Of a stretch of DNA of 64,000 nucleotides, positions 18,816-51,872 are shown in pieces. The notes beneath the pieces were generated by a model. The model was not told the DNA's origin, ran no database searches, and was given only the letters and a program-made list of their open reading frames with translations. Source of the DNA: an uncultured Spirochaetota bacterium. GTDB taxonomy: Bacteria > Spirochaetota > Spirochaetia > SZUA-6 > Fen-1364. How positions within the stretch are numbered: the first letter of the stretch is position 1; every line of letters starts with the position of its first letter. Made by a program: the position numbers and the translations under genes. The stretch spans positions 66,999 through 130,998 of the forward strand of contig CAVWBF010000020.1 of assembly GCA_963753085.1 (NCBI GenBank), given 5' to 3'.

Positions 18816-21086
<2,271 letters not shown>

Positions 21087-22212: not shown

Positions 22213-23142
22213 CTAGTTTACAGAGGGCCTGGGCAGGAGGCCCGCCGCTTCCACGATTTCCGGCACGCGGTGCTCCCATTCGATGGGCATGATATGCACG
22301 CCGGCCACACCTTCGATGTCCCTGACCTGACGGATGATCTCGCAGCAGATGCGGATGCCTTCCGCGCCGGCCTTTTCCTTCGGCGCCCCTTCCATACGCT
22401 TGAGGATGGCATCGGGGACGACGACCCCCGGCACCGACTCCGCCATGAAGCGGGCCATGCGGAATGACTTCAGGGGAATCACGCCGGCCAGGATGCGGCA
22501 CTTCGTGTGCGTCCCCTGCTCCCTGACCTTTTCCATCCAATCGGCAAACATGGCCACGTCGAACACGCACTGGGTCTGCGCGAAGTCCGCTCCCGCGGCC
22601 ACCTTCTTTGCCAGGAGGAGCGCGCGCAGCTCATGCGGAATCGCAAAGGGGTTTGCCGCGGTCCCGATGAACAGGGGGATGTCCCCGCGGATCTCCTCCT
22701 CGTTGCCGAGGATCCGACGCTCGTCGCGAAGCCTTTTGACCGTGGCAACGAGCTGCGTGGAGTCGATATCGTAGACTCTCTTTGCGCCGGGCTGGTCGCC
22801 CAGGCTGTGGTGATCCCCCGAGATGCAGAGGATGTTCTTCACGCCGAGAGCAGACGCCCCCAGGATGTCGCTCTGGATCGCAATGCGGTTCCTGTCGCGG
22901 CACGTCATCTGCATGACCGGCTCCACGCCCTGCCGCACCAGGAGGGCGGAGCAGGCGATGCTCGACATGTGGACCATCGCGCTCTGGTTGTCCGTGACGT
23001 TCACCGCGTCCACTGCCCCCCGCAACTGGCCCGCTTTCTTTTCCACGATCTCGGTATCCGTCCCCCTCGGCGGACCCAGCTCCGCCGTGACCGCAAAGTG
23101 GCCGGCGCAAAGTATTTTCTGGAGGTTGCTTCCCGAGCTCAT
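22213..23142 (-). CDS. metF: Methylenetetrahydrofolate reductase, MetF (acetogen/anaerobe type)
   Basis: 309 aa from ATG 23142, which overlaps the metV stop (ATGA). Reads FAVTAELGPPRG, VNVTDNQSAMVHMSS and MTCRDRNRIAIQSDILGA, typical of MTHFR TIM barrels. The track ORF is extended by 98 codons. Confidence 0.88.
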   Translation of the reverse strand: MSSGSNLQKILCAGHFAVTAELGPPRGTDTEIVEKKAGQLRGAVDAVNVTDNQSAMVHMSSIACSALLVRQGVEPVMQMTCRDRNRIAIQSDILGASALGVKNILCISGDHHSLGDQPGAKRVYDIDSTQLVATVKRLRDERRILGNEEEIRGDIPLFIGTAANPFAIPHELRALLLAKKVAAGADFAQTQCVFDVAMFADWMEKVREQGTHTKCRILAGVIPLKSFRMARFMAESVPGVVVPDAILKRMEGAPKEKAGAEGIRICCEIIRQVRDIEGVAGVHIMPIEWEHRVPEIVEAAGLLPRPSVN

Positions 23143-23864
23143 GCCTTGTCCGCCTTTTCCTTCTTCACCCCGTAGCGCGCTTCGAATCCCCTCTGGACGA
23201 GCACCCCCTGGCCGCGTTCGAGCCATTCCATGGGAGGCCGGATCTCGAGCATGCTTTCCGCCCGTCCCTGTTCTTTCAGCCGCTCGTAGATGGCATTCCA
23301 GGCGCAGGTCAGTCCGCCGCCCAGCTCGCAGGTCCCGTCCGCGCGGGTTCCACCGCAGGGGCCGTTCAGAACGCCTTTTGAGCAACGCGTGAGCGGACAG
23401 ATGCCGCCCGTCAGCCCCAGCATGCATTTCTTGCACGTGCGGCAGCGCTCCTCGTACAGTCCCGTGTCGATATCCACGCCGAGGAACATCGTGTCCAGCG
23501 CGGGGAAGACCGGCTTGTCAGGGTACCTGTCTCCCAGGTGCTGCACCCCGGCACCGCAGGCGGTTGACAAGAGGCAGTGGCAGTTTTCCGCCATGTCGGC
23601 CACCTCGTCCAGGAACTGCGAATTGCACTGCCGCTCCACGGTGACGCAGGAGAACCGCAGGGGCACATGCTCCCGGCGGGCCATCTCCTCAAGCTCGTCG
23701 TTCAGCACGAGGGCTTCACGCTGACCGCCCGCCAGGCAGACGGAGGTGCACCCTCCGCAGCCGACGGTGAGCACGTTGAGGAAATCCCGGGGGTGGACCG
23801 CCTCCTTGAACGTCCGGATCAGCCCGAATATTTCTTCCAGAGGCTTTCGCGTCGCCTTTACCAT
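23139..23864 (-). CDS. metV: MetV, Cys-rich MTHFR-associated subunit (MTHFR C-terminal-like domain)
   Basis: 241 aa with many Cys clusters (GCGGCTSVC, CHCLLSTACGAG, CRTCKKC, GICPLTRCSKGVLNGPCGG). Translationally coupled to metF. Confidence 0.8.
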   Translation of the reverse strand: MVKATRKPLEEIFGLIRTFKEAVHPRDFLNVLTVGCGGCTSVCLAGGQREALVLNDELEEMARREHVPLRFSCVTVERQCNSQFLDEVADMAENCHCLLSTACGAGVQHLGDRYPDKPVFPALDTMFLGVDIDTGLYEERCRTCKKCMLGLTGGICPLTRCSKGVLNGPCGGTRADGTCELGGGLTCAWNAIYERLKEQGRAESMLEIRPPMEWLERGQGVLVQRGFEARYGVKKEKADKA

Positions 23865-23886
23865 TCCCGGCTCCTTCCTGGCGCTG

Positions 23887-24279
23887 TCATGCGTTGCGTT
23901 CTCCGTCGTATGTGCGGAAAATGCCGCGCTCCCTGCAGACGTTCCGCGCGCTTGCTATCAGGGAGGGGATGCTGACCCCCACGGGGCAGTAGCATCGCAT
24001 GCACAGCACGCACCTGTTCCACACGAGGTCGCTGATGGTCCGGTATTCAGACTCGGACAGCTTTCCCTTTTTCCGAAAGATCCTGCCGATGGAGTTGATT
24101 GCCTTGTACGACGGGGAATAGCGCGGATCCCCTCCGCTCCCCTGGAACTTGAAGCAGCTCTCCGCGCAGAGCGCGCAGTGGGCGCACGCCTGCAGGGACA
24201 GCTTGATCATATCCCTGTTGCGGTCCAGAACCCGGGTGATGCGGTGCATCACCATGGCCCCCGCGGTGTCATCCTTCAT
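23887..24279 (-). CDS. Small 2x[4Fe-4S] ferredoxin-type protein (HdrC / DsrK-N-terminal-like)
   Basis: 130 aa with CAHCALCAESC and CVLCMRCYCP cluster motifs. No CCG domain. ATG 24279 overlaps the stop of the upstream cytochrome b gene (ATGA). Confidence 0.7.
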   Translation of the reverse strand: MKDDTAGAMVMHRITRVLDRNRDMIKLSLQACAHCALCAESCFKFQGSGGDPRYSPSYKAINSIGRIFRKKGKLSESEYRTISDLVWNRCVLCMRCYCPVGVSIPSLIASARNVCRERGIFRTYDGERNA

Positions 24280-25208
24280 TTCGCCCTCCCCCAGGCCCGC
24301 GCGGCAGGCCGCAGCGCGTATTCGCCCGACACGAAGAATCGGGCGAAGAGAAGGAAGGGCATGTGGCCGAGCTTCGTGAACGGGATGGCGACGAACAAGG
24401 CGTCCGCGGAAATCACGTGGACCACCATCAGCCAGTGGGAGGTCGTCACATGGTGGTACGCCATGAGGCCCGTCACAAACGGGGCCAGAACGAGCAGAAG
24501 GACACCGTAGTCGTACACGGTGGAAAGCACCCTGACGCGCGGAAAAAACATGCGGCGCAGGAGAAAGAATCCTCCGGCTGCGATCAGGACGATGGTGAGC
24601 CAGTCAGCGAGCGGGCCCGGGATGGCGGGCAGACTCGCGTGGAATCTCCTGGCCAGGAGGATGTTGTGGGCCGGCAAAAGGAGCGGAACAAGGAAAAGGA
24701 GAATGTGGAAAACAAGGCTCACCGTCCTCATGACGGGGTGAGTCCCGCTTTTCGGTCGGGCCGGCCCGGGGAACAGGGACGCCAGGACGGGCCTGTTCTC
24801 AGGCTGGAGACCCAGGACAGCTTCCGGGCGATACTTTCCGCGTCCGGGGGCCATTCGGGTAAACCTCCTGAACTGACGGAAGCGGTAGAGGAGACCCAGC
24901 AGGGCCAGGAGAAGGGAAATGCGAAGCGCAGGTCCCTGCGCTATGTCGTAGACGGTTGTCGACAGGTTCGCTCGGGCCCCCGGCGTTCGGGAAGCGGAGC
25001 TTGTGGCAGCCGCGGTGGAGCGGGATGCGGAGGTGGCGGCGTCAGCCGAGGGCTTCGAAACTGACGGGGTGGCGGCCCCGGAGGTGCGGGAGGCTGAGCT
25101 CGTTGCGTCAGTCTCCTGCGACCACGCGTGCCCGGCGATCATGAGAATGACAATGACCATTCCGGCAAGGACCCGGAAGCCGCCCCTCGAGAATCCGAAC
25201 ACTCCCAT
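24276..25208 (-). CDS. NarI/DsrM/HdrE-type dihaem cytochrome b membrane protein with an N-terminal Ser/Thr/Ala-rich extension
   Basis: ATG 25208 with GGAAGGTGA upstream. Five predicted TM helices after the extension. His pairs FHILLF..PAHN and HVISADALFVAIPFTKLGH (18-residue spacing), plus the PFTKLxH motif shared with NarI. Confidence 0.7.
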   Translation of the reverse strand: MGVFGFSRGGFRVLAGMVIVILMIAGHAWSQETDATSSASRTSGAATPSVSKPSADAATSASRSTAAATSSASRTPGARANLSTTVYDIAQGPALRISLLLALLGLLYRFRQFRRFTRMAPGRGKYRPEAVLGLQPENRPVLASLFPGPARPKSGTHPVMRTVSLVFHILLFLVPLLLPAHNILLARRFHASLPAIPGPLADWLTIVLIAAGGFFLLRRMFFPRVRVLSTVYDYGVLLLVLAPFVTGLMAYHHVTTSHWLMVVHVISADALFVAIPFTKLGHMPFLLFARFFVSGEYALRPAARAWGRAK

Positions 25209-25215
25209 CAGCGGC

Positions 25216-25854
25216 TCACCTTCCTGCGATTGCCTTGAGCTTTTCAGCCGCCGTTGCGGCATCCGGCGCGTACCCGTCCGCCCCGATCTCACGCGCGTAC
25301 TGGTCGGTGAGCGGCGCTCCTCCCACCATGAACTGGACCTTGTTCCGCAGCCCCTCTTTCTGGAAACGATCGATGACGTCCTTCATCCCTGTCATCGTGG
25401 TCGTCAGGAGGGCGGACATCCCGACCGCCTTGGCGTCAGGATTGTCCTTGAGGCCCTGGAGGAACTTGTCCGCGGAGACGTCGATGCCCAGGTCGACGAC
25501 CTCCAGACCTGCTCCCTGCGCCATCATCTTCACGAGGTTCTTGCCGATGTCGTGAAGGTCTCCCTTGACCGTGCCCAGGAGCATCTTGCCGATGGGCTTG
25601 ACCCCTGCCTTCACCAGCTCGGGACGCAGGATTTCCATGCTCTGGTTCATGGCGCGCGCGGCAATCAGGACCTCCGGAATGTAGACCTCGTTCGCCTTGA
25701 ACCGCTTGCCGATCTTCTCCATGCCGTCCAGGAGGCCCTTGTTGAGAATATCGCCGGCGCGCTTCTTCTCAGCCAGGAGCGAGGAGGTCAGCTCCTTCGC
25801 CCTGTTCGCGTTGCCCTTCTGGATGGACTCGGAAAGCTCCTCGAAAGTTGCCAT
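25216..25854 (-). CDS. Corrinoid (cobalamin-binding) protein of methyltransferase systems
   Basis: 212 aa. N-terminal helical cap plus Rossmann B12 domain with GDLHDIGKN (DxHxxG), SALLTTT (SxL) and GGA. SD CAGGAGGAA upstream. Confidence 0.88.
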   Translation of the reverse strand: MATFEELSESIQKGNANRAKELTSSLLAEKKRAGDILNKGLLDGMEKIGKRFKANEVYIPEVLIAARAMNQSMEILRPELVKAGVKPIGKMLLGTVKGDLHDIGKNLVKMMAQGAGLEVVDLGIDVSADKFLQGLKDNPDAKAVGMSALLTTTMTGMKDVIDRFQKEGLRNKVQFMVGGAPLTDQYAREIGADGYAPDAATAAEKLKAIAGR

Positions 25855-25900: not shown

Positions 25901-25928
25901 ATTGTACGATTGCAGCCCTTTTTGTAAA
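25901..25928 (-). promoter_or_regulatory. Putative sigma70-type promoter of the corrinoid-cytb-FeS-metVF operon
   Basis: Minus strand reads TTTACA (25928-25923), 16-nt spacer, TACAAT (25906-25901). It lies about 45 nt upstream of ATG 25854. Confidence 0.5.
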
Positions 25929-26002: not shown

Positions 26003-26770
26003 TCAGCGCTTTCGAGCCTTTGCCGCCGCCTTCTTTTTGGCCGCCGGCCTGGCAGTCCTCCTGCGGGCAGTGCCGTTGACGCGCTTGGCTCCCGCTCGCC
26101 GGGGCTTCAGCGCCGTTCGCACTGGCTGGACCTTCTTCAGTTTCTTCTCCAGGGACGCCGAGTAGTCCTCGAGGTGCAAGAGGAGGTTGAATACGTCCTC
26201 CTGCGCCTTCTCATAAAGCTCACGGGCTTTGGCTGGGTTGGTTCGGTTCAGCTCCTGGACGTCATGAACGGCGATCACCGTGCCGTCTTCACCGGCAACG
26301 ACATCCACGGGCCTGCTCTTCTGGTGAAACACGGCGGCGGAGGCGAATACGCTCCCGGGCCGATACTTCATGCCGGGGTGCCCGTCGTTGTGCGCAGAGC
26401 CGCGGATGACCTCACAGGCAAGCCCCTCCGCTTCGCGCTTGCGCAGGACAACATCACCTCGTTGGAATGTCTCCGCGGGACCAGCCGCTTGCGCTGCAGG
26501 AGCAAAAACGGAGCTTGCCGTTAATCCGCCGATGCGCTCGTACGAGCTTCCGATCTTGAAGATCTCGGGATTCGCGAGCTGGTGCTTCCTTCCGTAAATC
26601 GCGTCATGCTTAATCTGGGCGAGATTTTTCGCGATTTTTATCGACTCCGAGTCGATGTCCGCCTCGGTCACCCCCATGAGGTTTTCCTTGACGACGAACT
26701 CCGATAAGAAGGGACAGCCGGGCTCCCGGCATCTGATCTTGTAGACAGCTTCCTTGAGCTTGAACGACAT
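26003..26770 (-). CDS. Hypothetical protein with a cNMP-binding-like beta-barrel core and a Lys/Arg/Ala-rich histone-H1-like tail
   Basis: SD AGGAGGAA upstream of ATG 26770. The central FQRGDVVLRKREAEGLACEVIRGSA...VVAGEDGTVIAVHDV resembles a cNMP-binding fold. The tail reads RRRTARPAAKKKAAAKARKR. Confidence 0.55.
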   Translation of the reverse strand: MSFKLKEAVYKIRCREPGCPFLSEFVVKENLMGVTEADIDSESIKIAKNLAQIKHDAIYGRKHQLANPEIFKIGSSYERIGGLTASSVFAPAAQAAGPAETFQRGDVVLRKREAEGLACEVIRGSAHNDGHPGMKYRPGSVFASAAVFHQKSRPVDVVAGEDGTVIAVHDVQELNRTNPAKARELYEKAQEDVFNLLLHLEDYSASLEKKLKKVQPVRTALKPRRAGAKRVNGTARRRTARPAAKKKAAAKARKR

Positions 26771-27850: not shown

Positions 27851-28849
27851 TTACTGGGCGCGGATCATGTAGGGAATCATGCCGTGGATGGGCCGTGCGG
27901 ATGGGTCCGCGTTGAACCTCCAGAGCCGCACGGCTGCACTCACCGCCGCGTCCACCTCGTTGTATCCCGAAGAGCCCTCCACGTTGACATCCGAAAGGAA
28001 GCCATCGGGAGTCAGGGTAAAGGTGACCAGGACGGTGAGGGTAAGTCCTTCCTTGCTCACCCACGCCGGAATGCGAGGCTGCGGGGAGGAAAGGAGCTTC
28101 CGTGCCCTTCCAGCCTCCGGCTGGTCCCAACGAAAACGAAAATCACCCTGTCCTCCGCCAACGGCTCCGCCCCTTCCTTCCTGTCCACCACCGCCTTGCA
28201 GGGCGGTTCCTCCTTGCCCTCCGGCCAGCCTGCCCTGGGCCAGTGACTTGTCGAGCGACCCCAGGTCCAGGGAGCCCTTTGCGGGAGCCTGTCCACCGCC
28301 TTGCACGTAGACGCCGGCCGCGCGCGACGGGGCCGTTCCGCCTCCTCCTCCCTGGCTGGCGGAACCGGTGCTCGCCTGCGACTGGGTGCGTGAGGGCTTG
28401 AAGACCGGCTCCTGCACGGGCGTGGTTGCCGACTGCGTGAAGTTGGGTTGTCCACCCGTGGGTGATCCCGACGTCCTGAAGCTCGGCCCTGTCGGCCGCG
28501 ATTCGCTTTCCGTCTGTCCCTGGCGGGGCGTCGGGATGGTGAAGCTCTCTCCGGTGGATGCGTTCGGTGCCGCCGCGCGTGTCTGCGCCGGAAGCTGGGA
28601 CTGGGGCTGCCCCCGCAGGGCCGGGCCCGCCTGGGCCGGCTCGGCCGTCAGGGCCATGCCGCCAAGGGTCCCAGGCGCGAGATCCACGCTCAGGGTGGTC
28701 AGCTGGAGTGGGGGCTGCGCAAGGCGGATGATCGCAAGAGCGGCGAAGAAGCAGACGTGGAGGAGCACGGCCGCCAGGAGCGCAATCAGCAATCGCCGCG
28801 AATCGCTGTCGCTCTGCCCGCCATTCATCGTCTGCACTGCTGCACTCAT
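27851..28849 (-). CDS. tonB: TonB/TolA-like energy transducer
   Basis: N-terminal TM anchor (LLIALLAAVLLHVCFFAALAII), long Pro/Gln/Gly-rich spacer, and a C-terminal TonB_C-like domain (TVLVTFTLTPDGFLSDVNVEGSSGYNEVDAAVSAAVRLWRF). Confidence 0.8.
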   Translation of the reverse strand: MSAAVQTMNGGQSDSDSRRLLIALLAAVLLHVCFFAALAIIRLAQPPLQLTTLSVDLAPGTLGGMALTAEPAQAGPALRGQPQSQLPAQTRAAAPNASTGESFTIPTPRQGQTESESRPTGPSFRTSGSPTGGQPNFTQSATTPVQEPVFKPSRTQSQASTGSASQGGGGGTAPSRAAGVYVQGGGQAPAKGSLDLGSLDKSLAQGRLAGGQGGTALQGGGGQEGRGGAVGGGQGDFRFRWDQPEAGRARKLLSSPQPRIPAWVSKEGLTLTVLVTFTLTPDGFLSDVNVEGSSGYNEVDAAVSAAVRLWRFNADPSARPIHGMIPYMIRAQ

Positions 28850-28859
28850 GGGAGTCCCC

Positions 28860-30491
28860 CTAAAAGCTCAACCGGACGCTCGCCACGACGCGGAAGCCCG
28901 GCTCCACGTACGGATACAGGCTGGGACCGTATCGATGAAGCCCGCTCGACAACGGCCACAGGAGGTCGTAGAGATCGAGGTGAAGCTGGGCCGGCTCGGA
29001 AAGCCGAACGAACCCGCCGATATCCAGCTCAGGAAGCTGTACCGTCGGAGGCAGGCCCGTGAGCTGGGTTGCGCTGACCTGGCCGCCGTAGGCTCCGGTA
29101 GGCTCCATGGCCAGTGCCTCCACGGTTATCTCATCAGCAGGGGCAAAGGTCGACCTGTCGATGAACTCCCTCTTCCAGCCTGCATCCAGCGTCACTCCCG
29201 GCGTAATGGTCCATCGCAGGCCGGCGTCTCCTGTCAGCCGGGTAGCCGATGCCTGGGAGACGGTGTAGAGCCCCTGGTAATCCGGCGAAGGCGAGCCCCC
29301 GGTGAAAAAAGTCGATGTCGGCATTGCCGCGCTGCTCATGAAAGAAGCCTTCACGCGGACGCTCAAGTCTCCCGTAAGGGCAAGCTGAAAAGCTCCATCC
29401 GCAAACCACCCCCGGTCATCTACCAGGCCCACAGGTACAAGGTACGGATTGAGCGCCAGGATGTCACCCTGGTCGTAAGGGACAACCCGGTAGCCAAAGG
29501 ATGCATCGAGGGTGAGGGCTGAAAAAGGAGAACCGGTGGCGTGGATGGAAAAGGGGAGCAGGCTTCCCAGCTGGGAGCTCCAGAACCATGCCGCCGAGCC
29601 TTCCAGCAGGAGCGATCCCGGAAAGCTCAGGCTCAACGAGACTCCCGTGCGCAGGCGCTGCACCTGGTCGTCCCCTATGACGAGCATATGCGCCAGGCGG
29701 TAATCGTAGTCCCCGGAGACTCCGACGGTCAGTATCCCCGTGCGCGCCTCCGCGCCGAGGTGCGTCGTGCCCTTGTACTCGGCCGCCTGGCCGGGGGTGC
29801 TTGAGGCCAGTGTCAACGAATCCGTGACGCCGCGAACGGAGCCGTCCACCGTGAGCCAGTCGAGCGGCTGGACCCGCAGCGTGCCAGTTCCGTCGAGGTC
29901 TCGTCCGAGTCGATAAATGTACGGCGCCTGCTGCTGCAGGCCGTTCTCCTTTTCCGAGTAGCTTCCCTGGAAACCGCCATCGAAGGGCCCGAGCTTGCCC
30001 GAGATGTTGCCGGCAATCGTATCATCACGGGTGTCGTACCCGGAGCCCTGCGTCTGCCCCGAGATGCCGTCAGCGGTGTCATGGGAGAAGGAAAGGCCGG
30101 AGGTGGAATTGCCGCCGATAGTGGTCACGTTCAGGTTCCCCACGACCCTGTTCTGCGACCCGGCGCCCAGCGTGGCCTGCGTGGCAAGCGGGCGCTGGGG
30201 CGTTGCGGTCCCGCCAAGGGGATCAGACCCTTCCACCCCTAGCGTCCGCGCGGGCGCCTGGACAGCAAGCTCGGGTGAGGCAGGGAGGAGGACCGCGGCC
30301 CCCGCGAGGTTCACCGGGGGTGTGGGGGGGAGCATGGCCTGGATGTTTTCCACGCTGAGGTCCTGGATGTCCAGGGTCACCTGCGGCAGCACGAGCTCGG
30401 GCTGGGCGGGCTGGGCCGGCTGGTCTGCAGCCTCCAGGGCGGCAGGCGCCAGGAGGATCAGGAAAAGGGAGAGAAAGCGCAGCTTGCTCAT
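28860..30491 (-). CDS. Outer-membrane beta-barrel protein, unknown family
   Basis: Signal peptide ends ALEAAD. Alternating beta-strand pattern; C-terminal VVASVRLSF (terminal Phe). ATG 30491 overlaps the TPR gene stop (ATGA). I recognise no plug domain or TonB box. Confidence 0.65.
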   Translation of the reverse strand: MSKLRFLSLFLILLAPAALEAADQPAQPAQPELVLPQVTLDIQDLSVENIQAMLPPTPPVNLAGAAVLLPASPELAVQAPARTLGVEGSDPLGGTATPQRPLATQATLGAGSQNRVVGNLNVTTIGGNSTSGLSFSHDTADGISGQTQGSGYDTRDDTIAGNISGKLGPFDGGFQGSYSEKENGLQQQAPYIYRLGRDLDGTGTLRVQPLDWLTVDGSVRGVTDSLTLASSTPGQAAEYKGTTHLGAEARTGILTVGVSGDYDYRLAHMLVIGDDQVQRLRTGVSLSLSFPGSLLLEGSAAWFWSSQLGSLLPFSIHATGSPFSALTLDASFGYRVVPYDQGDILALNPYLVPVGLVDDRGWFADGAFQLALTGDLSVRVKASFMSSAAMPTSTFFTGGSPSPDYQGLYTVSQASATRLTGDAGLRWTITPGVTLDAGWKREFIDRSTFAPADEITVEALAMEPTGAYGGQVSATQLTGLPPTVQLPELDIGGFVRLSEPAQLHLDLYDLLWPLSSGLHRYGPSLYPYVEPGFRVVASVRLSF

Positions 30492-33379
30492 TTCCCTGCC
30501 TCCTGCAGCTTGCGCGCCCTGGCTGTCCAGGGCGACGATGGGAAGTTGTCCGACATCTTTTTCACAATGACCTGGACCTGGTCCGGGCGCTGGCCGAGCT
30601 TCATCATCTCCGCGGCCCGGAAGAGGGCGGACGCGGAAAAGTCCGCATCCGAGGCCCCAGCCTCCGCCGCCGCAACAAACCGCTTCGCCGCTTCCAGGAG
30701 GTCGCTCTTTCTATAGAAATATTCCCCTTCCAGGTACACGGCCCGGGCGCTCGTCATGCCGCTTCCCTGGCTCGCAACCTGCTGGAGCATCTGGTAACCC
30801 TGGTCGACCTTTTTCTCCCCGCTGTAGATATACAGCTTCGCAAGGTCGGTGGTCGCTTCCAGCTTTGCGGTGCCGCTTGAATGCGAGATGCGCGTCGTGA
30901 GGTCAGCTTCAGTGGAATCCAGTCCCTGGATCTGGTAGCGGAGTTTTTCAGCAGTAATGTCCGCTTTTGCAAGCCGCGCCTCGTCGGGATAGTCGGATAT
31001 GAACCGCGAGTACAGGTCGAGCGCGCGCCTGAGGTCGTTGGCGGCCTGGTAGACCTCCGCGGCCTTTCGCAGGGACGCGGCGCGGAACGAGCTGGACTTG
31101 TAGGTGGTTGCCAGCTGCTCCCAGAGAAGCGCCGCATCGAAGCGCGCGCCGGTTGCGTAGGAAGACTCTCCTCCCCAGTAGAGGGCCGCGTCGTACAGCC
31201 TCCCGGCGGGATATTTCCTCCTGTAATCGGTGAACGCTGACGCTGCGGCCACGTAGTTTCCCTGGTTGTAGAAGGTCTCAGCCACCTGGTAGCTTGCAGA
31301 TTCGGCCAGCGCGCTGTTCGGGAACTGGGTCATGAGGTTCCGGTAGGCATCGATTGCCCCGGAAGGCGACCCGGAAAGAGCCTGTACGCCGGCGTAGTCG
31401 AACAGGGCGTCGTCGGCAAAGGGAGACTGGGGTGACGAGCTGATGATGTGCTGGAGCGCCGTTGAGGCATCCGCCAGCTTCTTCGCGCCGATCAGGCTCT
31501 TGGCGTAGAGGTAGAAGTCCTTCTCCGAGGAGCTGCGGTCTCCTTCGGCCTCCGCGGCCTGGTAGAAGTCCGCCGATGCCTTGTCGAAGTCCCCAAGATT
31601 GAAGTGGCTCCATCCCGCGAGGAACAGGATCTTGGGGGCAAGAACGTGGCCGGGATAGGCAGTGATGAGACCGTCGAGGATCTGTGCGCTGCGCTTGAAG
31701 TCGTCCGTCTTCGAATACGCCCACCCCAGGTAGTAGCCGGAATAGGGCAGGATGACTCCGAGATCCCTCGCCTTGGCCGTCGAGGCATCTATTTTTTCCA
31801 GTGTTGCCGCGCCCGCGGCGTAGTCCTTCATGGCGATCAGGCTGAGCCCGCGGAGGTAGATTGCCGCTGTCCCGACCTGGGGATTCTTCGAGACGAGGTC
31901 AGGGCTCGAAGCCATGAGGGAAGCAGTTCCCTCCTCGACCGATTTGTAGTCCTTTGTCAGAAACTCCATCTCCAGCAGGTCGAGGTTCGCTTCTACGTCG
32001 AGGGGAAGGATTCCGATGTATTCCTTGAGCGCCGCAGCCGCTCCTGCGAAGTCCCCGCGCTTCTTCAGGATCTGCCCCTGAAGGCGAAGGAAATCCGCGC
32101 GGGCCCCCGGCGTGTCTGTGCTCTTCTGAAAGCGCGCCACTGTGGCAGCCGCCTGGTCTGTCTTGCCCTGGCGAAGCTGCACGTCTGCCAGGAGCGCAGC
32201 GGCCTGAGGCGCACGGGTGGAGGCGGGGTATGTTTCCAGGAACCGCGAGAAGATGCTTTCCGCAAGGGCCAGCTCCCCCGAGTCACGGGCAAGCCCCGCA
32301 AGGGCGAGCATTCCCGACTCGGAGGACGCGCCCGGCTGGCTGGTGTAGTCCTGCAGCAACGCCCGGGCACCGGCAGCGTCCTTCTGATCCTGGAGGATCT
32401 TTGCCAGGTAAATGGGGACCGTGCTGTCCACGGGGAAGGACTTCCTGAGGGCCCACGCCCTCTGGAGGTACAGCGATGCCGCGTCCAGGTTTCCTTTCTT
32501 GTAGTTTTCCACTCCCAGCCCGGCCCAGACATCCATCATGACCTGGGGAGTCGCCGAGAAATGGCTCTCCATCTCTCTGGCGATGGCTTCCATGCGGGGG
32601 AGGTCGGCCTGGGTCTCCGCGGCGCTAAACAGCCTGCGATACGAGGCAAGGGAGATGTCCGGCCGCGCGTCGCGGAGGTTCGTGTACGCGGTGATTGCGT
32701 CCCCCTGGCGCCCGCTTTCCCAGAGGCCTTCCGCCCTGTTGAAAAGGAACTCCTGTCGAAGGTCACCAGGCAGGGAGGCAGGGTCCGTCTCTGAAGACAG
32801 CTGCTCCAGGGCATCCCAGGATTTTTCCTTCAAGAGCAGGGAGGAGAGAAGGACGAGGGAAGGAGCGCGCAGGTCCGAGCCGGGCCATGCCCGCACGATC
32901 TGGCGCGCCGCGTCCACGGCTTCAGGCAGTTTCTGGAGGGCTTCGAGGTCGAGAGACTTGCACAGAAGCGCCCGGGGAACCAGCTCGGGATCCTTTCCGG
33001 TGGACAGGTACTCGTTGAGGGAGACGAGGCTGGGGGTGAACCTCGACAGCTTGTAGAGAGAGAGCCCCTGCCACAAGGGCACCGCCTCGATGTAGCGTGT
33101 CCAGCGGTAGCGCAAGGCGACGTCGGAGAGAATGGAGGACGCCTGCTGGTAATTGCCCAGCTGGTACAGGCACACGGCGCGACGGTACTGGACATCGGCG
33201 GCAAGGTCCGAGGAAGGGTATAATTGAAGGAACTCGTCGTACCCCACCAGGGCGGCAGTGTAGTTCTTGTCGAGGAACCTGCTCTCCGCCTCCGTGAAAA
33301 GCTCGCCGGAGGCCGGTGCAGCCCAGAGGGACACCGAGCCTGCCAGCAGGACCAGAACGGCAAGTGAGCGCATCCTCAT
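30488..33379 (-). CDS. Large secreted TPR-repeat protein (963 aa; CpoB/YbgF-like repeats)
   Basis: Start taken at ATG 33379 (MRMRSLAVLVLLAGSVSLWA signal peptide); 33373 and 33394 are alternatives. The 1295-aa track ORF runs into the divergent gene and is rejected. TPR-like helix pairs run throughout (e.g. YQLGNYQQASS, YNQGNYVAAASAFTDYRRKYP). Confidence 0.8.
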   Translation of the reverse strand: MRMRSLAVLVLLAGSVSLWAAPASGELFTEAESRFLDKNYTAALVGYDEFLQLYPSSDLAADVQYRRAVCLYQLGNYQQASSILSDVALRYRWTRYIEAVPLWQGLSLYKLSRFTPSLVSLNEYLSTGKDPELVPRALLCKSLDLEALQKLPEAVDAARQIVRAWPGSDLRAPSLVLLSSLLLKEKSWDALEQLSSETDPASLPGDLRQEFLFNRAEGLWESGRQGDAITAYTNLRDARPDISLASYRRLFSAAETQADLPRMEAIAREMESHFSATPQVMMDVWAGLGVENYKKGNLDAASLYLQRAWALRKSFPVDSTVPIYLAKILQDQKDAAGARALLQDYTSQPGASSESGMLALAGLARDSGELALAESIFSRFLETYPASTRAPQAAALLADVQLRQGKTDQAAATVARFQKSTDTPGARADFLRLQGQILKKRGDFAGAAAALKEYIGILPLDVEANLDLLEMEFLTKDYKSVEEGTASLMASSPDLVSKNPQVGTAAIYLRGLSLIAMKDYAAGAATLEKIDASTAKARDLGVILPYSGYYLGWAYSKTDDFKRSAQILDGLITAYPGHVLAPKILFLAGWSHFNLGDFDKASADFYQAAEAEGDRSSSEKDFYLYAKSLIGAKKLADASTALQHIISSSPQSPFADDALFDYAGVQALSGSPSGAIDAYRNLMTQFPNSALAESASYQVAETFYNQGNYVAAASAFTDYRRKYPAGRLYDAALYWGGESSYATGARFDAALLWEQLATTYKSSSFRAASLRKAAEVYQAANDLRRALDLYSRFISDYPDEARLAKADITAEKLRYQIQGLDSTEADLTTRISHSSGTAKLEATTDLAKLYIYSGEKKVDQGYQMLQQVASQGSGMTSARAVYLEGEYFYRKSDLLEAAKRFVAAAEAGASDADFSASALFRAAEMMKLGQRPDQVQVIVKKMSDNFPSSPWTARARKLQEAGK

Positions 33380-33745
33380 GGAAACGTATCGCATACCATG
33401 GAGTTCCTCAAGAGCCGAGCGTCCCGGGGAAGGCGACGAAGCTGTCACGTTTTTTGCCATACGGTGCAAGAGTACTACGAATGCCCGTGCGGTGGAGTCA
33501 TATGCGCGAGGAAAATGGGGTCGAATTTCCATGACACATTCCTTTTCCGCGCCCGCGCGGGTCGTGCGGCACCCGGGCGTGTCGTTGAGATTCGACACGA
33601 GAATCATCTTTCGGATTACTGACCCGGATTGTCGCTGATTCGTAGAGTAGCACTGGAGCAGTATTGTGGGAGTAGCAGGTCGAAACGCCGGCGTTGTTGA
33701 AAATGCCGCGCCATCGTTATACAGTATTCTCGACGGGAGGGCCCC

Positions 33746-36700
33746 ATGAAAAACCAGGTTCGCCGTTTCATCGTCGTCGCATTGTTTGCACTTGCCGCCG
33801 GGGCCGTCCATGGAGAGAGCGGCTTTCTGGATTTCTACTCCCCGCAGTTCCTCGGAGGGATGGGCGGGACGGCCAACCTGAACTCGCCGCAGGGGACGGT
33901 CCTCAACCCCGCCGTTGCCGGAGGCAAGCAGAGGGTGACCCTGGACCTCAGTTACCTGGCCCTGACCGGGGTGAGCCAGAACCCGGTTGCCCTGGACGGG
34001 AACTTCTTCAACCTCGGCGTGACCATTCCGACAAACGTCGGCGTGTTTTCCACCACCGGGCGTTTCACCAATGCGACCTTCTCCGGGGTTCCGCCGGCGC
34101 CCAACTGGGGGGCAATGGGCGGGCTGACCTTCGCATTCTCCAAGGATGTGTTCCCTGACTTGTACGTGGGCGCCGGCCTGGGAGGGGAGTTCGGCAGCGA
34201 CTGGGGCCTGGGCCTCGACCTCGGGTTCCTCCACATCCCCGGCGACCTCGGTCTCCTGAAAGACTTCCGCTGGGGCGCGGCAATCCGCAACATAACGTTC
34301 AAAGGCTACACTTCCTCCAACGCGCCCGGCTCTCTCGCGAACCCGCCCGTGTTCACCCCGGCAGTCGGGGCGCACTTCTCCCTTATCAGGACGGCTCCCT
34401 TCGTGCTCTCCCTGGACCCCGACATCAGCTTCCCGTCGTTCCAGGACCTGCAGGCCACAATCGGCGCGGACATGGTGATTGCCAATTTCCTGATCCTCAG
34501 CGGCTCCTACATATACGACCTGCGCCAGGCGGCGGGGATCGAGCCGTCGCGCTCCCTTCCGTTCACGTTCGGGGTTTCTTTCAAGATCACGACGAACATA
34601 CAGCAGAACATCGGCTCCCTGAACGCCACCGAGCAGGGTTGGAACAGGAGCGAGGTGACCAGCACGGCTGTCGCAGCGCCGCTTGAGAACGGCGTCTGGG
34701 CGTTCGGCCTCGGGGCAAACGTGCCCCTTGGCGCAATAGAGAAGAATCCTCCCGCCATCGGCCTTGATACGAACGGTGAGAAGTACGTCTCCCCGACTCT
34801 TGTAGGCGGAAAGGTGGACCTCGTCCTTCCTCTCTCAATCACCTCCAAGAGGTATATCAAGGGATACAAGCTCGTGATCCAGGATTCCTCGGGAACACCC
34901 GTGCGGACCATCCAGAACAAGGAGGACCGGCCCGAGAACAGGGACCTCGGCAACCTCGTGAAGCGTCTGTTCTACGTGAAGTCGGGGATCCCTATTCCTT
35001 CCAGCATCAGGTGGGACGGGACCTCTGACAAGGGGACCGTCGTTCCTGACGGCACCTACCGGTACTTCGTGGAAGCCTGGGACGACAACGGCAACGTCGG
35101 CAGGACCCCGCTGGGGACCACCATAGTCAAGACGGTGCCTCCGCAGATATCCGTGTCCGCCCAGTACCTGATCTTCTCTCCCACGGGGGAAGGGACCAAG
35201 GCGGCGCTTCCCGTGCACCAGACCGGCTCCAAGGAAGACCTGTGGAGCGGTGTGATCAAGGACGCTGCCGGAGGGACAGTGCGGACGTTCACCTGGAAGG
35301 ATTCTGCGCCGCCTGACTTCGAATGGGACGGGAAGAACGACAAGGGCGTCCTGGCCCCTGACGGCGTGTACAGCTACCACGTGGCCGCCACGGACAGGGC
35401 TCAGAACTCCAACGCTGCGGAACTGGACAACATCATCATCAACACCCAGGCCACCCCCGTCCAGCTCTCCATCGATTACGCGTATTTCTCCCCGGGGACA
35501 GAAAGTCCGAAGAAGGCAGTCACTTTCGCGCTCGGAGTGCCCGTCAAGACGGGTATCGAGAATTGGAGCCTCGACGTCTCGGACGCAAGCGGGGCCGTAC
35601 AGAGGACTTTCTCCGGGAAGATGAGCATCCCCGCGAGCGTCGAATGGGACGGAAAGGATGACAAGGGGAAGGTGCTGCCGGACGGCGGCTACAAGGCGAA
35701 GCTCGCCATCATGTACGTGAACGGACACAACCCGACCGCTGATTCACCTCTTATCACCATCAAGACGACCCCGCCCACCGCCGCGGTCTCCGCTGAATAC
35801 GAGGTTTTCTCCCCGACCGGAGACAGTGAAAGGAACACGGTCACGATCCACCAGGACACCTCTGAGGAGCTGTTCTGGACAGGGACCTTCAAGGACGACA
35901 CGGGCAAGGACGTCAGGACCGTGGTGTGGCGCGGGACCGCGGACCGCGCGTTCCAGTGGGACGGCCGCACGGACGACGGCGCGCTCCTCCCTGACGGCGC
36001 TTACACCTACGAGCTTTCCTCCACGGACCGGGCAGGCAACACCGGCTCCTCGAAGCTCATCACGCTGCGGATCGACACCCAGAAGAAGCCTGTCCGCCTC
36101 TCCACGGATCTTGCCTATTTCTCACCCTTCGGCGGCGGATCCAAGACGAAGCTCAAGATCATCCCGGCGCTCGCCGTGACCACGGGCGTGGAGTCGTTCG
36201 TCGTGCGCGTGAAGAACGCCAAGGGGGACGTCATCCGGACCTTCAAGGGAAGCAACCGGCCTCCCGAGGAGCTGTCTTGGGCGGGAATCGATGACGCGGG
36301 CAACAGGGCGCCGGACGGGCAGTACTCGGCGGAGCTTCAGGTTACCTACTCCAACGGCACGCACCCCACGGCGCAGAGCAATCCGTTCTTCATCGACAAT
36401 CATTTCCCGCAGGTCGACGTAAGCGCGGATGTGACGCTGTTCTCTCCGGACGGCACGAGCCGCCAGCAGTCCGTCCTCATCAAGCAGTCATCAAGCGATG
36501 AGGACCTCTGGGAAGGGGAGCTGCACAACGCCAAGAACGAGCGCGTCCGCGCATGGTTCTGGAAGGGCAAGGCGGTGGACTTCTCCTGGGACGGCAAGGA
36601 TGACAACGGCAACGTCGTTCCGGACGGCAGCTATACGTACGTCGTGAAGTCACAGACGAAAGCCGGCAACCAGACGGTCAAGGAGCTGCGGGGAATTGTC

Positions 36701-37777
36701 GTGGACACGAGGGCCACGCCCGTCTTCCTGACTGCGTCGGCAACGGGATTCTCTCCCACTCCGACCGGCGTGCCGAACACGATCGGTTTCAGCCCGATCG
36801 TGGGCCTGAAGGACGGGATCAGGTCGTGGAAGCTGTCCATGGTGAGCGCAGGCGGTACGTCCGTGAAGGACTTCAGCGGGCAGGCTCCCGTGCCGTCGTC
36901 CCTCACGTGGGACGGCAAGGACGAAGCAGGGGCAACCGCGCCGGACGGCCTGTACACGGCCGATCTCCAGGTGGACTACTTCAAGGGGAATCTCGCTGAG
37001 ACAAAGACGCCGGAGTTCGCTGTGAACGCAACCGGGCCAAAGGTCGATATCGCGCTCGGCGGCGTCCCGTTCTCCCCGGACAACGACGGCTACAACGATG
37101 AGCTCACCATCGGCCTGAAGGTGACGGATCCCAGCCCCATCGACAGCTGGAACATCCAGATCATGGACCCGGAGAACCACCCGTTTGCATCGTTCTCAGG
37201 GAAGGGCACTCCATCGGACAAGATCATCTGGAACGGCCTGTCAGATACCGGCGAGCTGGTGCAGTCCGCGGAGGACTACCCGCTGACGTTCACGATCAAG
37301 GACACGCTGGGAAATACAGCCACGTACAACAAGACCATCCCCGTCGACATCCTCGTTGTAAAGGACGGCAATAATCTCAAGATCAGGATCCCGAGCATCA
37401 CGTTCCAGGCCAACACCGCGGATTTCACGCACGTGGATCCGGATAAGGCTGCGAAGAACATCGCCACCATCGCCCGGCTATCGGAGATCTTCAAGAAGTA
37501 CAACCAGTACAAGATCACGATCCAGGGCCATGCGAACCTCGTGAACTTCGACAACCCGGTCGCGGCGAAGAAGGAGCAGGAGCAGGAGTTGATCCCCCTG
37601 TCGAAAGCGCGGGCTGAGGCCATCAAGCAGGCGCTCGTAGCCCAGGGAATCGATACAGCGCGCATTTCCACCGTTGGAATCGGAGGCGCGGAGCCGGTGG
37701 TGCCGTTCTCCGACCTCGACAACCGCTGGAAGAACCGCCGTGTGGAGTTTATCCTTGTCCGCAACGAAGGCAGCTGA
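33746..37777 (+). CDS. Giant OmpA-family envelope protein: N-terminal beta-barrel, 8 FlgD-Ig-like domains, C-terminal OmpA peptidoglycan-binding domain
   Basis: GGGAGG lies 5 nt before ATG 33746, with a signal peptide. aa 24-340 are barrel-like with GGMGGTANL..VLNPAVAG (PorP/SprF-like motif). Eight repeats carry W[DNA]G.xDxGxxxPDGxY. The C-terminus reads ITFQANTADF..LSKARAEAIKQAL..NRWKNRRVEFILV (OmpA_C). Confidence 0.85.
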   Translation: MKNQVRRFIVVALFALAAGAVHGESGFLDFYSPQFLGGMGGTANLNSPQGTVLNPAVAGGKQRVTLDLSYLALTGVSQNPVALDGNFFNLGVTIPTNVGVFSTTGRFTNATFSGVPPAPNWGAMGGLTFAFSKDVFPDLYVGAGLGGEFGSDWGLGLDLGFLHIPGDLGLLKDFRWGAAIRNITFKGYTSSNAPGSLANPPVFTPAVGAHFSLIRTAPFVLSLDPDISFPSFQDLQATIGADMVIANFLILSGSYIYDLRQAAGIEPSRSLPFTFGVSFKITTNIQQNIGSLNATEQGWNRSEVTSTAVAAPLENGVWAFGLGANVPLGAIEKNPPAIGLDTNGEKYVSPTLVGGKVDLVLPLSITSKRYIKGYKLVIQDSSGTPVRTIQNKEDRPENRDLGNLVKRLFYVKSGIPIPSSIRWDGTSDKGTVVPDGTYRYFVEAWDDNGNVGRTPLGTTIVKTVPPQISVSAQYLIFSPTGEGTKAALPVHQTGSKEDLWSGVIKDAAGGTVRTFTWKDSAPPDFEWDGKNDKGVLAPDGVYSYHVAATDRAQNSNAAELDNIIINTQATPVQLSIDYAYFSPGTESPKKAVTFALGVPVKTGIENWSLDVSDASGAVQRTFSGKMSIPASVEWDGKDDKGKVLPDGGYKAKLAIMYVNGHNPTADSPLITIKTTPPTAAVSAEYEVFSPTGDSERNTVTIHQDTSEELFWTGTFKDDTGKDVRTVVWRGTADRAFQWDGRTDDGALLPDGAYTYELSSTDRAGNTGSSKLITLRIDTQKKPVRLSTDLAYFSPFGGGSKTKLKIIPALAVTTGVESFVVRVKNAKGDVIRTFKGSNRPPEELSWAGIDDAGNRAPDGQYSAELQVTYSNGTHPTAQSNPFFIDNHFPQVDVSADVTLFSPDGTSRQQSVLIKQSSSDEDLWEGELHNAKNERVRAWFWKGKAVDFSWDGKDDNGNVVPDGSYTYVVKSQTKAGNQTVKELRGIVVDTRATPVFLTASATGFSPTPTGVPNTIGFSPIVGLKDGIRSWKLSMVSAGGTSVKDFSGQAPVPSSLTWDGKDEAGATAPDGLYTADLQVDYFKGNLAETKTPEFAVNATGPKVDIALGGVPFSPDNDGYNDELTIGLKVTDPSPIDSWNIQIMDPENHPFASFSGKGTPSDKIIWNGLSDTGELVQSAEDYPLTFTIKDTLGNTATYNKTIPVDILVVKDGNNLKIRIPSITFQANTADFTHVDPDKAAKNIATIARLSEIFKKYNQYKITIQGHANLVNFDNPVAAKKEQEQELIPLSKARAEAIKQALVAQGIDTARISTVGIGGAEPVVPFSDLDNRWKNRRVEFILVRNEGS
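35144..37042 (+). repeat. Three tandem ~633-nt (~211-codon) units, each encoding an A-type plus a B-type Ig-like domain
   Basis: Landmarks recur with a 210-211-aa period. VSAxY is at aa 470/681/892, WDG(A) at 527/738/948 and W[DA]G(B) at 634/845/1055. The units are diverged at DNA level (protein-level repeat only). Confidence 0.8.
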
Positions 37778-37803
37778 GTAAGGTCCCGAGGGAGGGGTAG
37801 ACA

Positions 37804-38424
37804 ATGTTTGCTGGAAAAACACTGTGGCAGATCTTTGCATCCGGCGGCGCAACGATGTACGTGCTCCTGTTCTGCTCCCTGCTTTCGCTTGCCGTCATCA
37901 TAGACCGGCTCTGGACGTACTGGAGCATGATGCGGGTGAACCGGGCGGCGTTCATGCGCCGGATCCAGGGGATGCTGGAACGCAAGGACAGGGAAGGGGC
38001 GGTGGAGGTTTGCCGTGAGACGCGGGCCCCGTTTGCGCGCGTGGCGCTGGCGGGCCTGGAGCTCAGGTCACGGGACGAAAAGCTCCTGGCGAGCACGCTG
38101 GAGCGCGCCGTCACTTTCCAGGCCTCGCGCCTGGAGAGGCTCACGAGCATCGTCGGCACTATTGGAAACACGGCGGTGTACATCGGTCTCTTCGGGACCG
38201 TCCTCGGGATCATCCGGGCCTTTCGCGACATTTCCGCCATGGGAACCGGCGGGATGGCAGTAGTCATTGGAGGAGTGGCCGAGGCGCTCATCACGACCGC
38301 CACGGGACTGGCCGTGGCGGTCCCGTCGGTCATCGCGTACAACTACTTCGTGAGGCGCATCGACGAGTTCGTGAATGACATGGAGCTGTGCGCTTCCGAG
38401 ATGACGGACCTCCTGACCAGGTAA
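37804..38424 (+). CDS. exbB: MotA/TolQ/ExbB-family proton channel
   Basis: 206 aa, 3 TM helices, with the family pattern GTIGNTAVYIGLFGTVLGIIRAF..ALITTATGLAVAVP. Confidence 0.88.
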   Translation: MFAGKTLWQIFASGGATMYVLLFCSLLSLAVIIDRLWTYWSMMRVNRAAFMRRIQGMLERKDREGAVEVCRETRAPFARVALAGLELRSRDEKLLASTLERAVTFQASRLERLTSIVGTIGNTAVYIGLFGTVLGIIRAFRDISAMGTGGMAVVIGGVAEALITTATGLAVAVPSVIAYNYFVRRIDEFVNDMELCASEMTDLLTR

Positions 38425-38425
38425 G

Positions 38426-45890: not shown

Positions 45891-45914
45891 GAGTCCCTGG
45901 CCCTGGAGGCGCTG

Positions 45915-46997: not shown

Positions 46998-47044
46998 GGG
47001 CAAACCTCCTGACCGATGGCGTTGGATCGCATGGGCGTCCTGCT

Positions 47045-48271: not shown

Positions 48272-48282
48272 TCAGGCGCCTC

Positions 48283-49245: not shown

Positions 49246-49258
49246 GGAAAAGCTCCTT

Positions 49259-50266: not shown

Positions 50267-50273
50267 TTCCTGC

Positions 50274-51791: not shown

Positions 51792-51829
51792 CCGATCCCC
51801 TCCAACGGACGCATGCGAGAATGCCTTCT

Positions 51830-51867
51830 GAAAAGGAGGGGTCCCGGAGAATCCTTGCCGGGACCCC
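51830..51867 (-). terminator. Intra-operon intrinsic terminator/attenuator-like hairpin after the binding-protein gene
   Basis: Minus-strand RNA reads GGGGUCCCGG-CAAGGAUUCU-CCGGGACCCC followed by UCCUUUUC. Stem arms are at 51838-51847 and 51858-51867. Confidence 0.5.
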
Positions 51868-51872
51868 CAAAC

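Follow-up and report, generated by a model that had tools for sequence, protein, structure and literature searches.

An operon linking MetV and MetF to a TmcC/HmcE-like membrane cytochrome b, a candidate membrane-bound methylene-tetrahydrofolate reductase of an uncultured Spirochaetota bacterium

How the reduction of methylene-tetrahydrofolate (methylene-THF; -200 mV) is coupled to energy conservation, and how the oxidation of methyl-THF becomes feasible in organisms oxidizing acetate or methyl groups, is an open problem of one-carbon (C1) metabolism. The potential of the methylene-THF/methyl-THF couple is -200 mV (PMC9430772, PMC6436200), and four classes of methylene-THF reductase (MTHFR), namely MetF, MetVF, RnfC2-MetVF, and HdrCBA-MvhD-MetVF, are distinguished in anaerobes, none of which has transmembrane (TM) helices (PMC9430772, PMC6895022). 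The membrane or quinone partner of the enzyme has been described as unidentified (PMC9430772, PMC6436200, PMC6895022, PMC8760232, PMC13040438); the acetogen literature states that the "Q cycle protein remains to be identified" and draws hypothetical hook-ups to Rnf, Ech or menaquinone (PMC9430772, PMC6436200, PMC13040438, PMC6895022, PMC8760232), and recent papers place a question mark at this position, the known enzymes being without TM helices (PMC9430772, PMC13040438, PMC6895022, PMC8760232). The locus analyzed here raises the question of whether such a partner is encoded next to metVF. It lies in a stretch of 64,000 nucleotides (nt), hereafter the window, from an uncultured Spirochaetota bacterium (Fen-1364; assembly GCA_963753085.1, contig CAVWBF010000020.1, positions 66,999-130,998 of the forward strand), a soil or peat spirochaete, in which five packed minus-strand genes running from 25854 to 22213 encode a corrinoid protein, a membrane cytochrome b, a small Fe-S protein, MetV, and MetF (Table 1).

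Comparison with other genomes demonstrated joint inheritance, in several phyla, of four core proteins: the cytochrome b, the short Fe-S protein, MetV and MetF. In a scan of one genome per species for the exact word PFT[KA]LGHM, whose counts are consequently lower bounds, 80 loci were collected, and the five proteins of the window were compared with all of them. MetV and MetF were located within ~2.5 kb of the cytochrome/short Fe-S pair in 60 of the 80 loci, a full-length CCG protein was accompanied by neither MetV nor MetF in 16, and four were cut by contig ends. The hosts belonged to Spirochaetota, Thermodesulfobacteriota (mostly Syntrophales), Planctomycetota, Myxococcota and Acidobacteriota, besides unclassified metagenome-assembled genomes (MAGs), and the genes were arranged either as cytochrome, Fe-S, (c3), MetV, MetF or as MetF, cytochrome, Fe-S, c3, MetV. 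Such recurrence, in two gene orders, several phyla and 60 of 80 species-level genomes, shows that the observation is real and far beyond chance; co-conservation, on which an earlier interpretation of the letters alone (the sequence-only reading) had staked its proposal, was thus observed in at least five phyla. The same core emerged from the neighborhoods on metagenome contigs. Homologs of the membrane protein were found in Spirochaetia MAGs at 55-60% identity, together with many more distant ones, among which an N-terminal tetrahaem c3 domain is frequent, and the closest relatives of the window (L005-L009) possess all five genes in the same chromosomal context.

The Fe-S protein contains the motifs CxxCxxCxxxC (Cys 32, 35, 38, and 42) and CxxCxxCxC (Cys 90, 93, 96, and 98), and matched residues 52-152 of 457 in HmcF (E = 1e-21) and residues 24-137 of 430 in TmcB (E = 3e-21), while the DsrK model gave a weaker match restricted to its ferredoxin domain and HdrC (5odc_C) was reached at E = 0.01. 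No CCG domain was detected in this protein of 130 amino acids (aa) by Pfam, NCBIfam or cysteine motifs. Its description in the sequence-only reading as a small protein with two Cys clusters and without a CCG domain was hence borne out by the Fer4 matches and the Cys motifs, and the protein corresponds to the N-terminal two-cluster ferredoxin domain of TmcB/HmcF minus the CCG catalytic half. Among the loci from which both proteins could be extracted, the short Fe-S protein (125-160 aa) occurred with MetVF in 42 of 42, and the long one (380-446 aa, with CCG motifs) occurred without MetVF in 11 of 11. Because the short form always stands with MetVF and the full-length CCG form always without it, the simplest reading would be that MetV and MetF took the place of the CCG domain and became the catalytic head, on the cytoplasmic side, of a Tmc/Hmc-type transmembrane wire. 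The long arrangement is exemplified by Desulfacinum infernum, the only cultured organism in the set, which lacks MetVF; its cytochrome exceeds the cut-off as a true TmcC (253 bits) and is encoded together with a TmcA-like c3 and an HmcF/TmcB-like protein of full length. The functional tie between MetFV and the membrane module that had been proposed from the letters is backed by the strong co-conservation together with this length split. In addition, P0128, a 375-aa protein from a library of 1.84 billion proteins, joins a TmcC-like cytochrome b and the short Fe-S domain in a single chain (P0127 is a fragment of the same fusion), and this natural fusion supports direct contact between the two proteins. 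A search for cultured hosts of the short Fe-S protein returned only MAG and metagenome entries, in which it carries generic names such as "Fe-S oxidoreductase", "ferredoxin" or "HdrC".

The membrane protein gave its best NCBIfam matches to TmcC (NF045723, E = 1.5e-43) and HmcE (NF045716, E = 6e-43), the former over its full length (cytochrome residues 85-299 against profile positions 2-211 of 218), and several close homologs have a precomputed match to PF02665. An assignment to DsrM/HdrE was dropped, the values for DsrM (E = 7e-4) and QmoC (~1e-3 to 1e-4) standing against ~1e-43 for TmcC/HmcE. As shown by an alignment with 23 homologs, H168, H181, H252, H264, and H282 are invariant, four of which are predicted to be axial ligands, H168/H181 on helix 2 and H264/H282 on helix 5; the helix-5 pair is spaced by 18 residues, with H282 lying within PFTKLGH. 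A profile of this alignment retrieved only NarI from the PDB sequences, H264/H282 being aligned with NarI H187/H205, which we take to be the helix-5 haem ligands of that protein. On helix 2 the spacing is 13, as opposed to 10 in NarI (H56/H66). In the AlphaFold2 (AF2) model, a signal peptide and an unstructured segment in the periplasm precede five TM helices (93-119, 158-189, 198-221, 231-251, and 258-277), the N-terminus being outside, with an Arg-rich loop (218-226) on the cytoplasmic side, H168/H282 near the cytoplasmic side, and H181/H264 near the periplasmic side; the top eight Foldseek matches in the PDB, which were the only meaningful ones, were all NarI (probability 1.0). The protein has no cysteine at all, and therefore binds no haem c. 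The cytochrome is thus best regarded as a TmcC/HmcE homolog within the NarI superfamily rather than an equivalog. Of the NarI/DsrM-type dihaem cytochrome previously suggested, the superfamily, the His pairs, and the 18-residue spacing held, whereas the DsrM label gave way to the TmcC/HmcE type; the haem-ligating histidines, whose loss on alignment would have spoken against the idea, are all present.

The predicted five-helix dihaem b fold, with two His on helix 2 and two on helix 5 at a spacing of 18, is common to DsrMK(JOP), HdrED, and NarGHI, in which a cytoplasmic Fe-S subunit likewise sits atop the cytochrome. The similarity to these systems is, however, remote (DsrM and NarI, E = 7e-4), and the partner here is a folate enzyme instead of a CCG or molybdenum enzyme. 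No solved structure closer than NarI and HdrC was found by sequence and fold searches, and the DsrMKJOP structure of a 2026 preprint was not among the matches. Residues 32-82 of the cytochrome (24963-25115, minus strand) form a periplasmic stretch of 50 aa, rich in Ala, Ser, and Thr, in which (D/A)A(T/A)(T/S)SASR occurs three times. Most Spirochaetota homologs, those with a fused tetrahaem c3 domain among them, keep "DATSSAS" directly behind the signal peptide.

MetV (PF12225, E = 7e-31) contains 16 cysteines, and MetF (PF02219, E = 7e-40) covers the whole profile, its best NCBIfam match being the MTHFR half of a bifunctional YitJ-type protein (E = 3e-71). The adjacent pair is predicted to be a MetFV-type methylene-THF reductase. 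The operon shares with the known MTHFR classes the MetV-MetF core with overlapping genes and an HdrC-like small Fe-S protein, whereas it has no HdrA, HdrB, MvhD or RnfC2 and adds an integral membrane cytochrome. Genes for HdrA, HdrB (CCG) or MvhD were found neither in the operon nor in its flanks, and no RnfC-like NADH-binding subunit was found next to metVF. The literature agrees with the sequence-only reading that the described MetF partners include no cytochrome b module (PMC9430772, PMC8760232), and no description of a MetVF-cytochrome b gene cluster was found in the literature outside subscription-only papers. The parts are known and their combination is new, so that this is not a new kind of machine; the cytochrome b is a type of MetFV partner outside the known ones. 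The closest physiological precedents are the membrane-associated, quinone-analogue-reactive MTHFR activities of Sporomusa ovata and Thermacetogenium phaeum, for which the same physiology has been proposed, an electron chain that connects periplasmic H2 or formate oxidation via the membrane with methylene-THF and runs in either direction (PMC9430772, PMC6436200, PMC6895022); their membrane link was deduced from activity with no membrane subunit identified, whereas the link proposed for the operon is genetic.

Based on these findings, the explanation that we consider best overall, and rather probable, is a membrane-bound methylene-THF reductase consisting of a Tmc/Hmc-type wire with a MetVF head. 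Cytochrome b, Fe-S protein, MetV and MetF would form one complex at the membrane, in which electrons would pass from the flavin mononucleotide of MetF through the clusters of MetV, the two [4Fe-4S] clusters, the inner haem (H168/H282), and the outer haem (H181/H264) to a partner at the outer face. In most lineages this partner would be an operon-encoded periplasmic tetrahaem c3 or HmcABC, and these forms would connect the methylene-THF/methyl-THF couple with H2, formate or cytochrome pools of the periplasm. In the reductive direction, methylene-THF would be reduced with electrons from outside and protons from inside, building proton-motive force in a redox loop; in the oxidative direction, proton-motive force would be spent to push methyl-THF electrons to low-potential acceptors, a reverse push that has been postulated for syntrophic acetate oxidizers (PMC6895022). 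On an even balance of judgment, the module could constitute a fifth, undescribed class of MTHFR, a membrane-integral Tmc/Hmc-MetVF enzyme whose couple is wired to periplasmic cytochromes or the quinone pool, with the window form being a methyl-THF:quinone oxidoreductase. MetVF hard-wired by a conserved operon to a dihaem transmembrane cytochrome is a concrete and clonable candidate for the missing link, and could be the long-sought membrane connection through which the methyl branch of C1 metabolism meets respiration. If so, energy would be conserved during CO2 reduction in one direction, and reverse electron transport would operate during acetate or methyl oxidation in the other; several abundant uncultured groups of soil, peat, and sediment may then use a folate-bound C1 unit as donor or acceptor in respiration, and a TmcC-like cytochrome paired with the short Fe-S protein could serve as an annotation marker for the trait. 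In evolutionary terms, the catalytic head of a Tmc/Hmc-type wire would have been exchanged from a CCG domain to a folate enzyme.

The likeness to the sulfate-reducer complexes extends to the periplasmic side. Within the Desulfovibrio TpII-c3 complex, TmcABCD, the subunit TmcC gave the cytochrome its best family match, and the Fe-S protein matched TmcB over the ferredoxin domain; most relatives encode a TmcA-like tetrahaem c3 in the cluster, and the true TmcC/TmcB/TmcA set is found as a sister arrangement in Desulfacinum, the common layout being a periplasmic cytochrome, a dihaem b, and a cytoplasmic Fe-S protein. The differences are that MetV and MetF stand in place of the TmcB CCG domain, that the window operon lacks TmcA, and that no TmcD was seen. 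HmcE and the N-terminal domain of HmcF in HmcABCDEF match equally well, and HmcA and HmcB/HmcC-like genes follow the MetVF-linked module in Planctomycetota, Myxococcota, and some Thermodesulfobacteriota, whereas MetVF replaces the CCG part of HmcF and the window has no HmcA, HmcB or HmcC.

The 60 MetVF-linked loci were typed by these periplasmic partners into A, B, and C, the few that remained untyped being on contigs that end at or just past the module. In type A (~37 loci, in Syntrophales and many Spirochaetota), a signal-peptide-bearing tetrahaem c3 is encoded between the Fe-S gene and metV, and some Spirochaetota loci of this type add a c3 domain fused to the cytochrome b. In type B (12-13 loci, in Planctomycetota, Myxococcota, and some Thermodesulfobacteriota), genes for a 16-haem HmcA and HmcB-/HmcC-like proteins lie downstream of metF, the HmcA of the planctomycete locus L065 being genuine (400 bits). 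Type C, represented by seven robust loci of Spirochaetota or unclassified hosts and by the window, has no c-type cytochrome gene in the locus. A periplasmic multihaem cytochrome c is hence part of the cluster in ~50 of the 60 loci, and across the relatives the usual outer partner is predicted to be a periplasmic cytochrome c rather than demonstrably quinone. Since type C is scattered at three separate places in the neighbor-joining tree of the cytochrome, it suggests that this type arose by repeated loss of the cytochrome c.

Neighboring genes outside the window's clade suggested a place for the module in C1 metabolism. An AcsE-like methyl-THF:corrinoid methyltransferase is encoded directly upstream of metF in at least 15 Syntrophales loci, Fhs adjoins the module in two planctomycete loci (L038 and L065), and in two Rectinemataceae loci (L055 and L037) a pterin-binding methyltransferase lies upstream of it. 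In loci with such neighbors, the module looks like the pathway's own MTHFR. In the same two Rectinemataceae loci, the gene before the cytochrome encodes a protein of 527-551 aa in which MTHFR is fused to the C-terminal domain of MetV (L055, 6374-7957; L037, 1920-3575). A second MTHFR-like paralog, ~37% identical to MetF, was observed after metV in the Syntrophales loci L018 (10553-11446) and L058 (10586-11461).

The corrinoid protein that heads the operon of the window matched PF02607 (E = 1e-21) and PF02310 (E = 1e-25) and carries DxHxxG at residue 99. Its NCBIfam scores were 204 bits for MtgC (cut-off 370) and 180 bits for pyl_corrinoid (TIGR02370, cut-off 215); MtgC, MtbC and pyl_corrinoid together ranged over 176-204 bits, compared with 128 bits for MetH (B12 region, E = 3e-37). 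In the genome that carries L001, a paralog of 87% identity is located beside a URO-D methyltransferase and a PocR/AraC regulator. Because of the MtgC/MtbC-like scores and this neighborhood, a role in catabolic methyl transfer is favored over one in a split methionine synthase. The protein resembles MtgC, MttC, MtbC, and MtaC in its two B12-binding domains, DxHxxG and length of ~210 aa, as well as in the URO-D methyltransferase adjoining its paralog, and differs from them in missing every equivalog cut-off, in having no adjacent methyltransferase, and in its unusual position at the head of an MTHFR operon. The gene heads the module only in the Spirochaetia clade of the window (L005-L009, ~90% identity) and in the planctomycete L065 (50%), where the five-gene form arose independently. 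The protein, which the sequence-only reading had counted as part of the module, thus falls outside the conserved core and is a lineage-specific addition to it, its link to MetFV in the window being predicted co-transcription. Spirochaetia contigs contain a great many corrinoid paralogs (84-92% identity), which are far better conserved than the cytochrome (57-60%). Among the paralog entries (L088, 7001-8718; L090, 7001-7636; P0391-P0510), one has a URO-D methyltransferase, a PocR/AraC regulator, and an Ech/Mbh-like hydrogenase cluster as neighbors, and another lies near a Hox-type NiFe hydrogenase.

Methyl-THF oxidation appears the likeliest function in the window because the predicted transcript includes a corrinoid protein of the methyltransferase type and Wood-Ljungdahl genes are missing from the surroundings; that the complex there oxidizes methyl-THF derived from demethylation reactions is in our estimate evenly poised, and that it runs towards reduction is unlikely. 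Menaquinone, at ~-74 mV, can accept electrons from methyl-THF, while electron transfer from menaquinol to methylene-THF needs energy input. The membrane quinone pool is the likeliest single candidate for the outer partner in the window's lineage, a tentative assignment for which we would give somewhat less than an even chance. DsrM offers a parallel, in that its quinol site is reported to be blocked in forms with a periplasmic cytochrome, and DsrMK-only forms to look quinol-reactive (bioRxiv 10.64898/2026.08.25.746951). More speculatively, a quinone-coupled, corrinoid-fed window form would feed demethylation-derived methyl groups into respiration.

Several observations weigh against this interpretation, either for the complex as a whole or for its quinone-linked form in the window. 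All MetVF-linked hosts are uncultured; the cytochrome missed the equivalog cut-offs of both TmcC (149 vs 240 bits) and HmcE (147 vs 275 bits) and stayed below threshold for Pfam NarI (PF02665, E = 7e-4, 19.7 bits against a gathering value of 22.9), and its AF2 model is of moderate quality (predicted local distance difference test score 69, TM score to NarI 0.40-0.45). The corrinoid gene is missing from ~54 of the 60 MetVF-linked loci, and no methyltransferase gene was found next to it in the window, where the only URO-D gene (45915-47099) was rejected as a partner, as it lies 20 kb off in a NagA/NagB-like sugar operon. With regard to quinone, no substitution marking type C relative to types A and B, as a possible quinol site, was found, no men or mqn genes were found in the 64-kb window, and Tmc and Hmc, the closest relatives that have been characterized, are described as taking their electrons from periplasmic c3 cytochromes (PMC2702500). 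A cytochrome c encoded elsewhere in the genome as the outer partner in the window's lineage is a somewhat doubtful but serious candidate. By our own reasoning, moreover, quinone reduction at a NarI-like outer site would make methyl-THF oxidation exergonic yet dissipate proton-motive force, which looks wasteful.

The strongest of the competing explanations keeps the complex and reverses its direction: it would be the terminal methylene-THF reductase of acetogenic or Wood-Ljungdahl metabolism, driven in a redox loop by low-potential electrons from periplasmic H2 or formate that arrive via a cytochrome c or another carrier encoded elsewhere. Most relatives indeed combine c3 or HmcABC with the Wood-Ljungdahl neighbors AcsE and Fhs, the cytochrome core is alike in c-free and c-linked forms, Pta is encoded in the window, corrinoid paralogs on related Spirochaetota contigs have hydrogenase genes of the Ech or Hox type nearby, and such a chain has been predicted by the field (PMC9430772). 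Within the 64 kb, on the other hand, neither a cytochrome c gene or any open reading frame (ORF) with two or more CXXCH motifs nor any gene of the Wood-Ljungdahl pathway was found, and the operon is headed by a methyltransferase-type corrinoid protein instead of AcsE or CFeSP. Quinol alone would also be too weak a donor, with menaquinone at ~-74 mV and the methylene-THF couple at -200 mV. We therefore consider the reductive assignment distinctly unlikely for the window.

An anabolic operon, in which the methyl-THF from MetFV would serve methionine synthesis, with the corrinoid protein as the B12 part of a split methionine synthase and the membrane module as no more than an electron source, would suit the housekeeping genes around the Spirochaetia loci, the match of the corrinoid protein to the B12 region of MetH, and the JGI name 5-methyltetrahydrofolate-homocysteine methyltransferase given to many of its orthologs. 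It is nevertheless improbable: MtgC, MtbC and pyl_corrinoid outscore MetH, a URO-D methyltransferase and a PocR regulator accompany a near-identical paralog, the operon contains no gene for a homocysteine- or pterin-binding methyltransferase, a dihaem transmembrane wire would be an unusual electron supply for biosynthesis, and in other phyla the core stands among catabolic Wood-Ljungdahl genes. As the null hypothesis, cytochrome b and the short Fe-S protein could be what is left of a truncated Tmc/Hmc complex, or a redox module of their own, and happen to neighbor metVF without any coupling; the complex is a prediction, and this alternative has no direct support of its own. Co-occurrence in 60 of 80 genomes of at least five phyla, in two different gene orders and beside three accessory sets, the exclusive pairing of the short Fe-S form with MetVF without exception, the overlapping start and stop codons, and the invariance of all cofactor ligands make it very improbable indeed.

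The features of the operon are summarized in Table 1. The junctions read from the sequence confirmed the layout of five co-directional genes with short or ATGA-overlapping boundaries: start and stop codons overlap at 24279-24276 (cytochrome/Fe-S) and 23142-23139 (metV stop/metF start), and gaps of 7 nt and 22 nt separate the corrinoid from the cytochrome gene and the Fe-S gene from metV, respectively. For the cytochrome, the GTG start at 25292 of the mechanically called ORF was rejected in favor of the ATG at 25208-25206, as the longer ORF runs into the corrinoid gene; the latter start is supported because the orthologous genes begin 7-10 nt past the corrinoid stop. The promoter noted earlier upstream of the operon was also recovered, with 10 of 12 consensus matches ~45 nt upstream of the corrinoid gene, and the region contained two promoter-like sites against 0.4 expected from shuffles. 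No terminator-like site was found downstream of metF on the minus strand, and no riboswitch, including that for B12, or other Rfam element was found upstream of the operon.

Table 1. Genes and promoter candidate of the operon, with positions in the 64,000-nt window
Feature	Positions	Strand	Basis
Corrinoid (B12-binding) protein, 212 aa, MtgC/MttC/MtbC type	25216-25854	minus	PF02607 + PF02310
Predicted dihaem membrane cytochrome b, 310 aa, TmcC/HmcE-like, NarI superfamily	24276-25208	minus	NCBIfam, Pfam, fold
2x[4Fe-4S] protein, 130 aa, TmcB/HmcF/DsrK N-terminal ferredoxin domain (HdrC-like)	23887-24279	minus	Fer4_8, Fer4_17
MetV, 241 aa, Fe-S/zinc small subunit of MetFV	23139-23864	minus	PF12225
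MetF, 309 aa, flavin-containing catalytic subunit	22213-23142	minus	PF02219
Sigma-70-like promoter candidate, TTTACA-16 nt-TACAAT	25901-25928	minus	consensus match only

Directly upstream of the operon, a minus-strand gene (26003-26770), syntenic in L005-L007, encodes a 255-aa protein with a weak cyclic-nucleotide-binding match and a Lys/Arg/Ala-rich tail, which may be a regulator. At 1.2 kb downstream of metF, katG (catalase-peroxidase; 18816-21035, minus strand) indicates that the organism has access to haem b, and that it probably encounters oxygen or peroxide. A pterin-binding protein of the window (60393-61616) was considered as a methyltransferase partner and rejected, as it was identified as FolP (DHPS, 307 bits), and no genes of a methyltransferase system were found in the 64 kb. 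The sugar operon mentioned above (44340-52992, minus strand) comprises a sugar-type ABC transporter, NagB-like, NagA, and URO-D/MtaA-like (45915-47099) genes together with a GlmL/hydantoinase-like ASKHA protein (44340-45890), an odd setting for genes resembling a methyltransferase family and a B12-enzyme accessory. The cluster at 27851-38845, which encodes TonB, a large TPR lipoprotein, a 1343-aa FlgD-Ig/OmpA surface protein, and ExbB/ExbD, adjoins the operon also in L005-L007 and appears unrelated to it. Behind the cytochrome-c-free MetVF module of L004 (12144-16687), a dimethylsulfoniopropionate-lyase-like cupin, a GMC oxidoreductase, and an aldehyde dehydrogenase are encoded, and the latter BetA/BetB-like pair hints at choline or glycine betaine metabolism.

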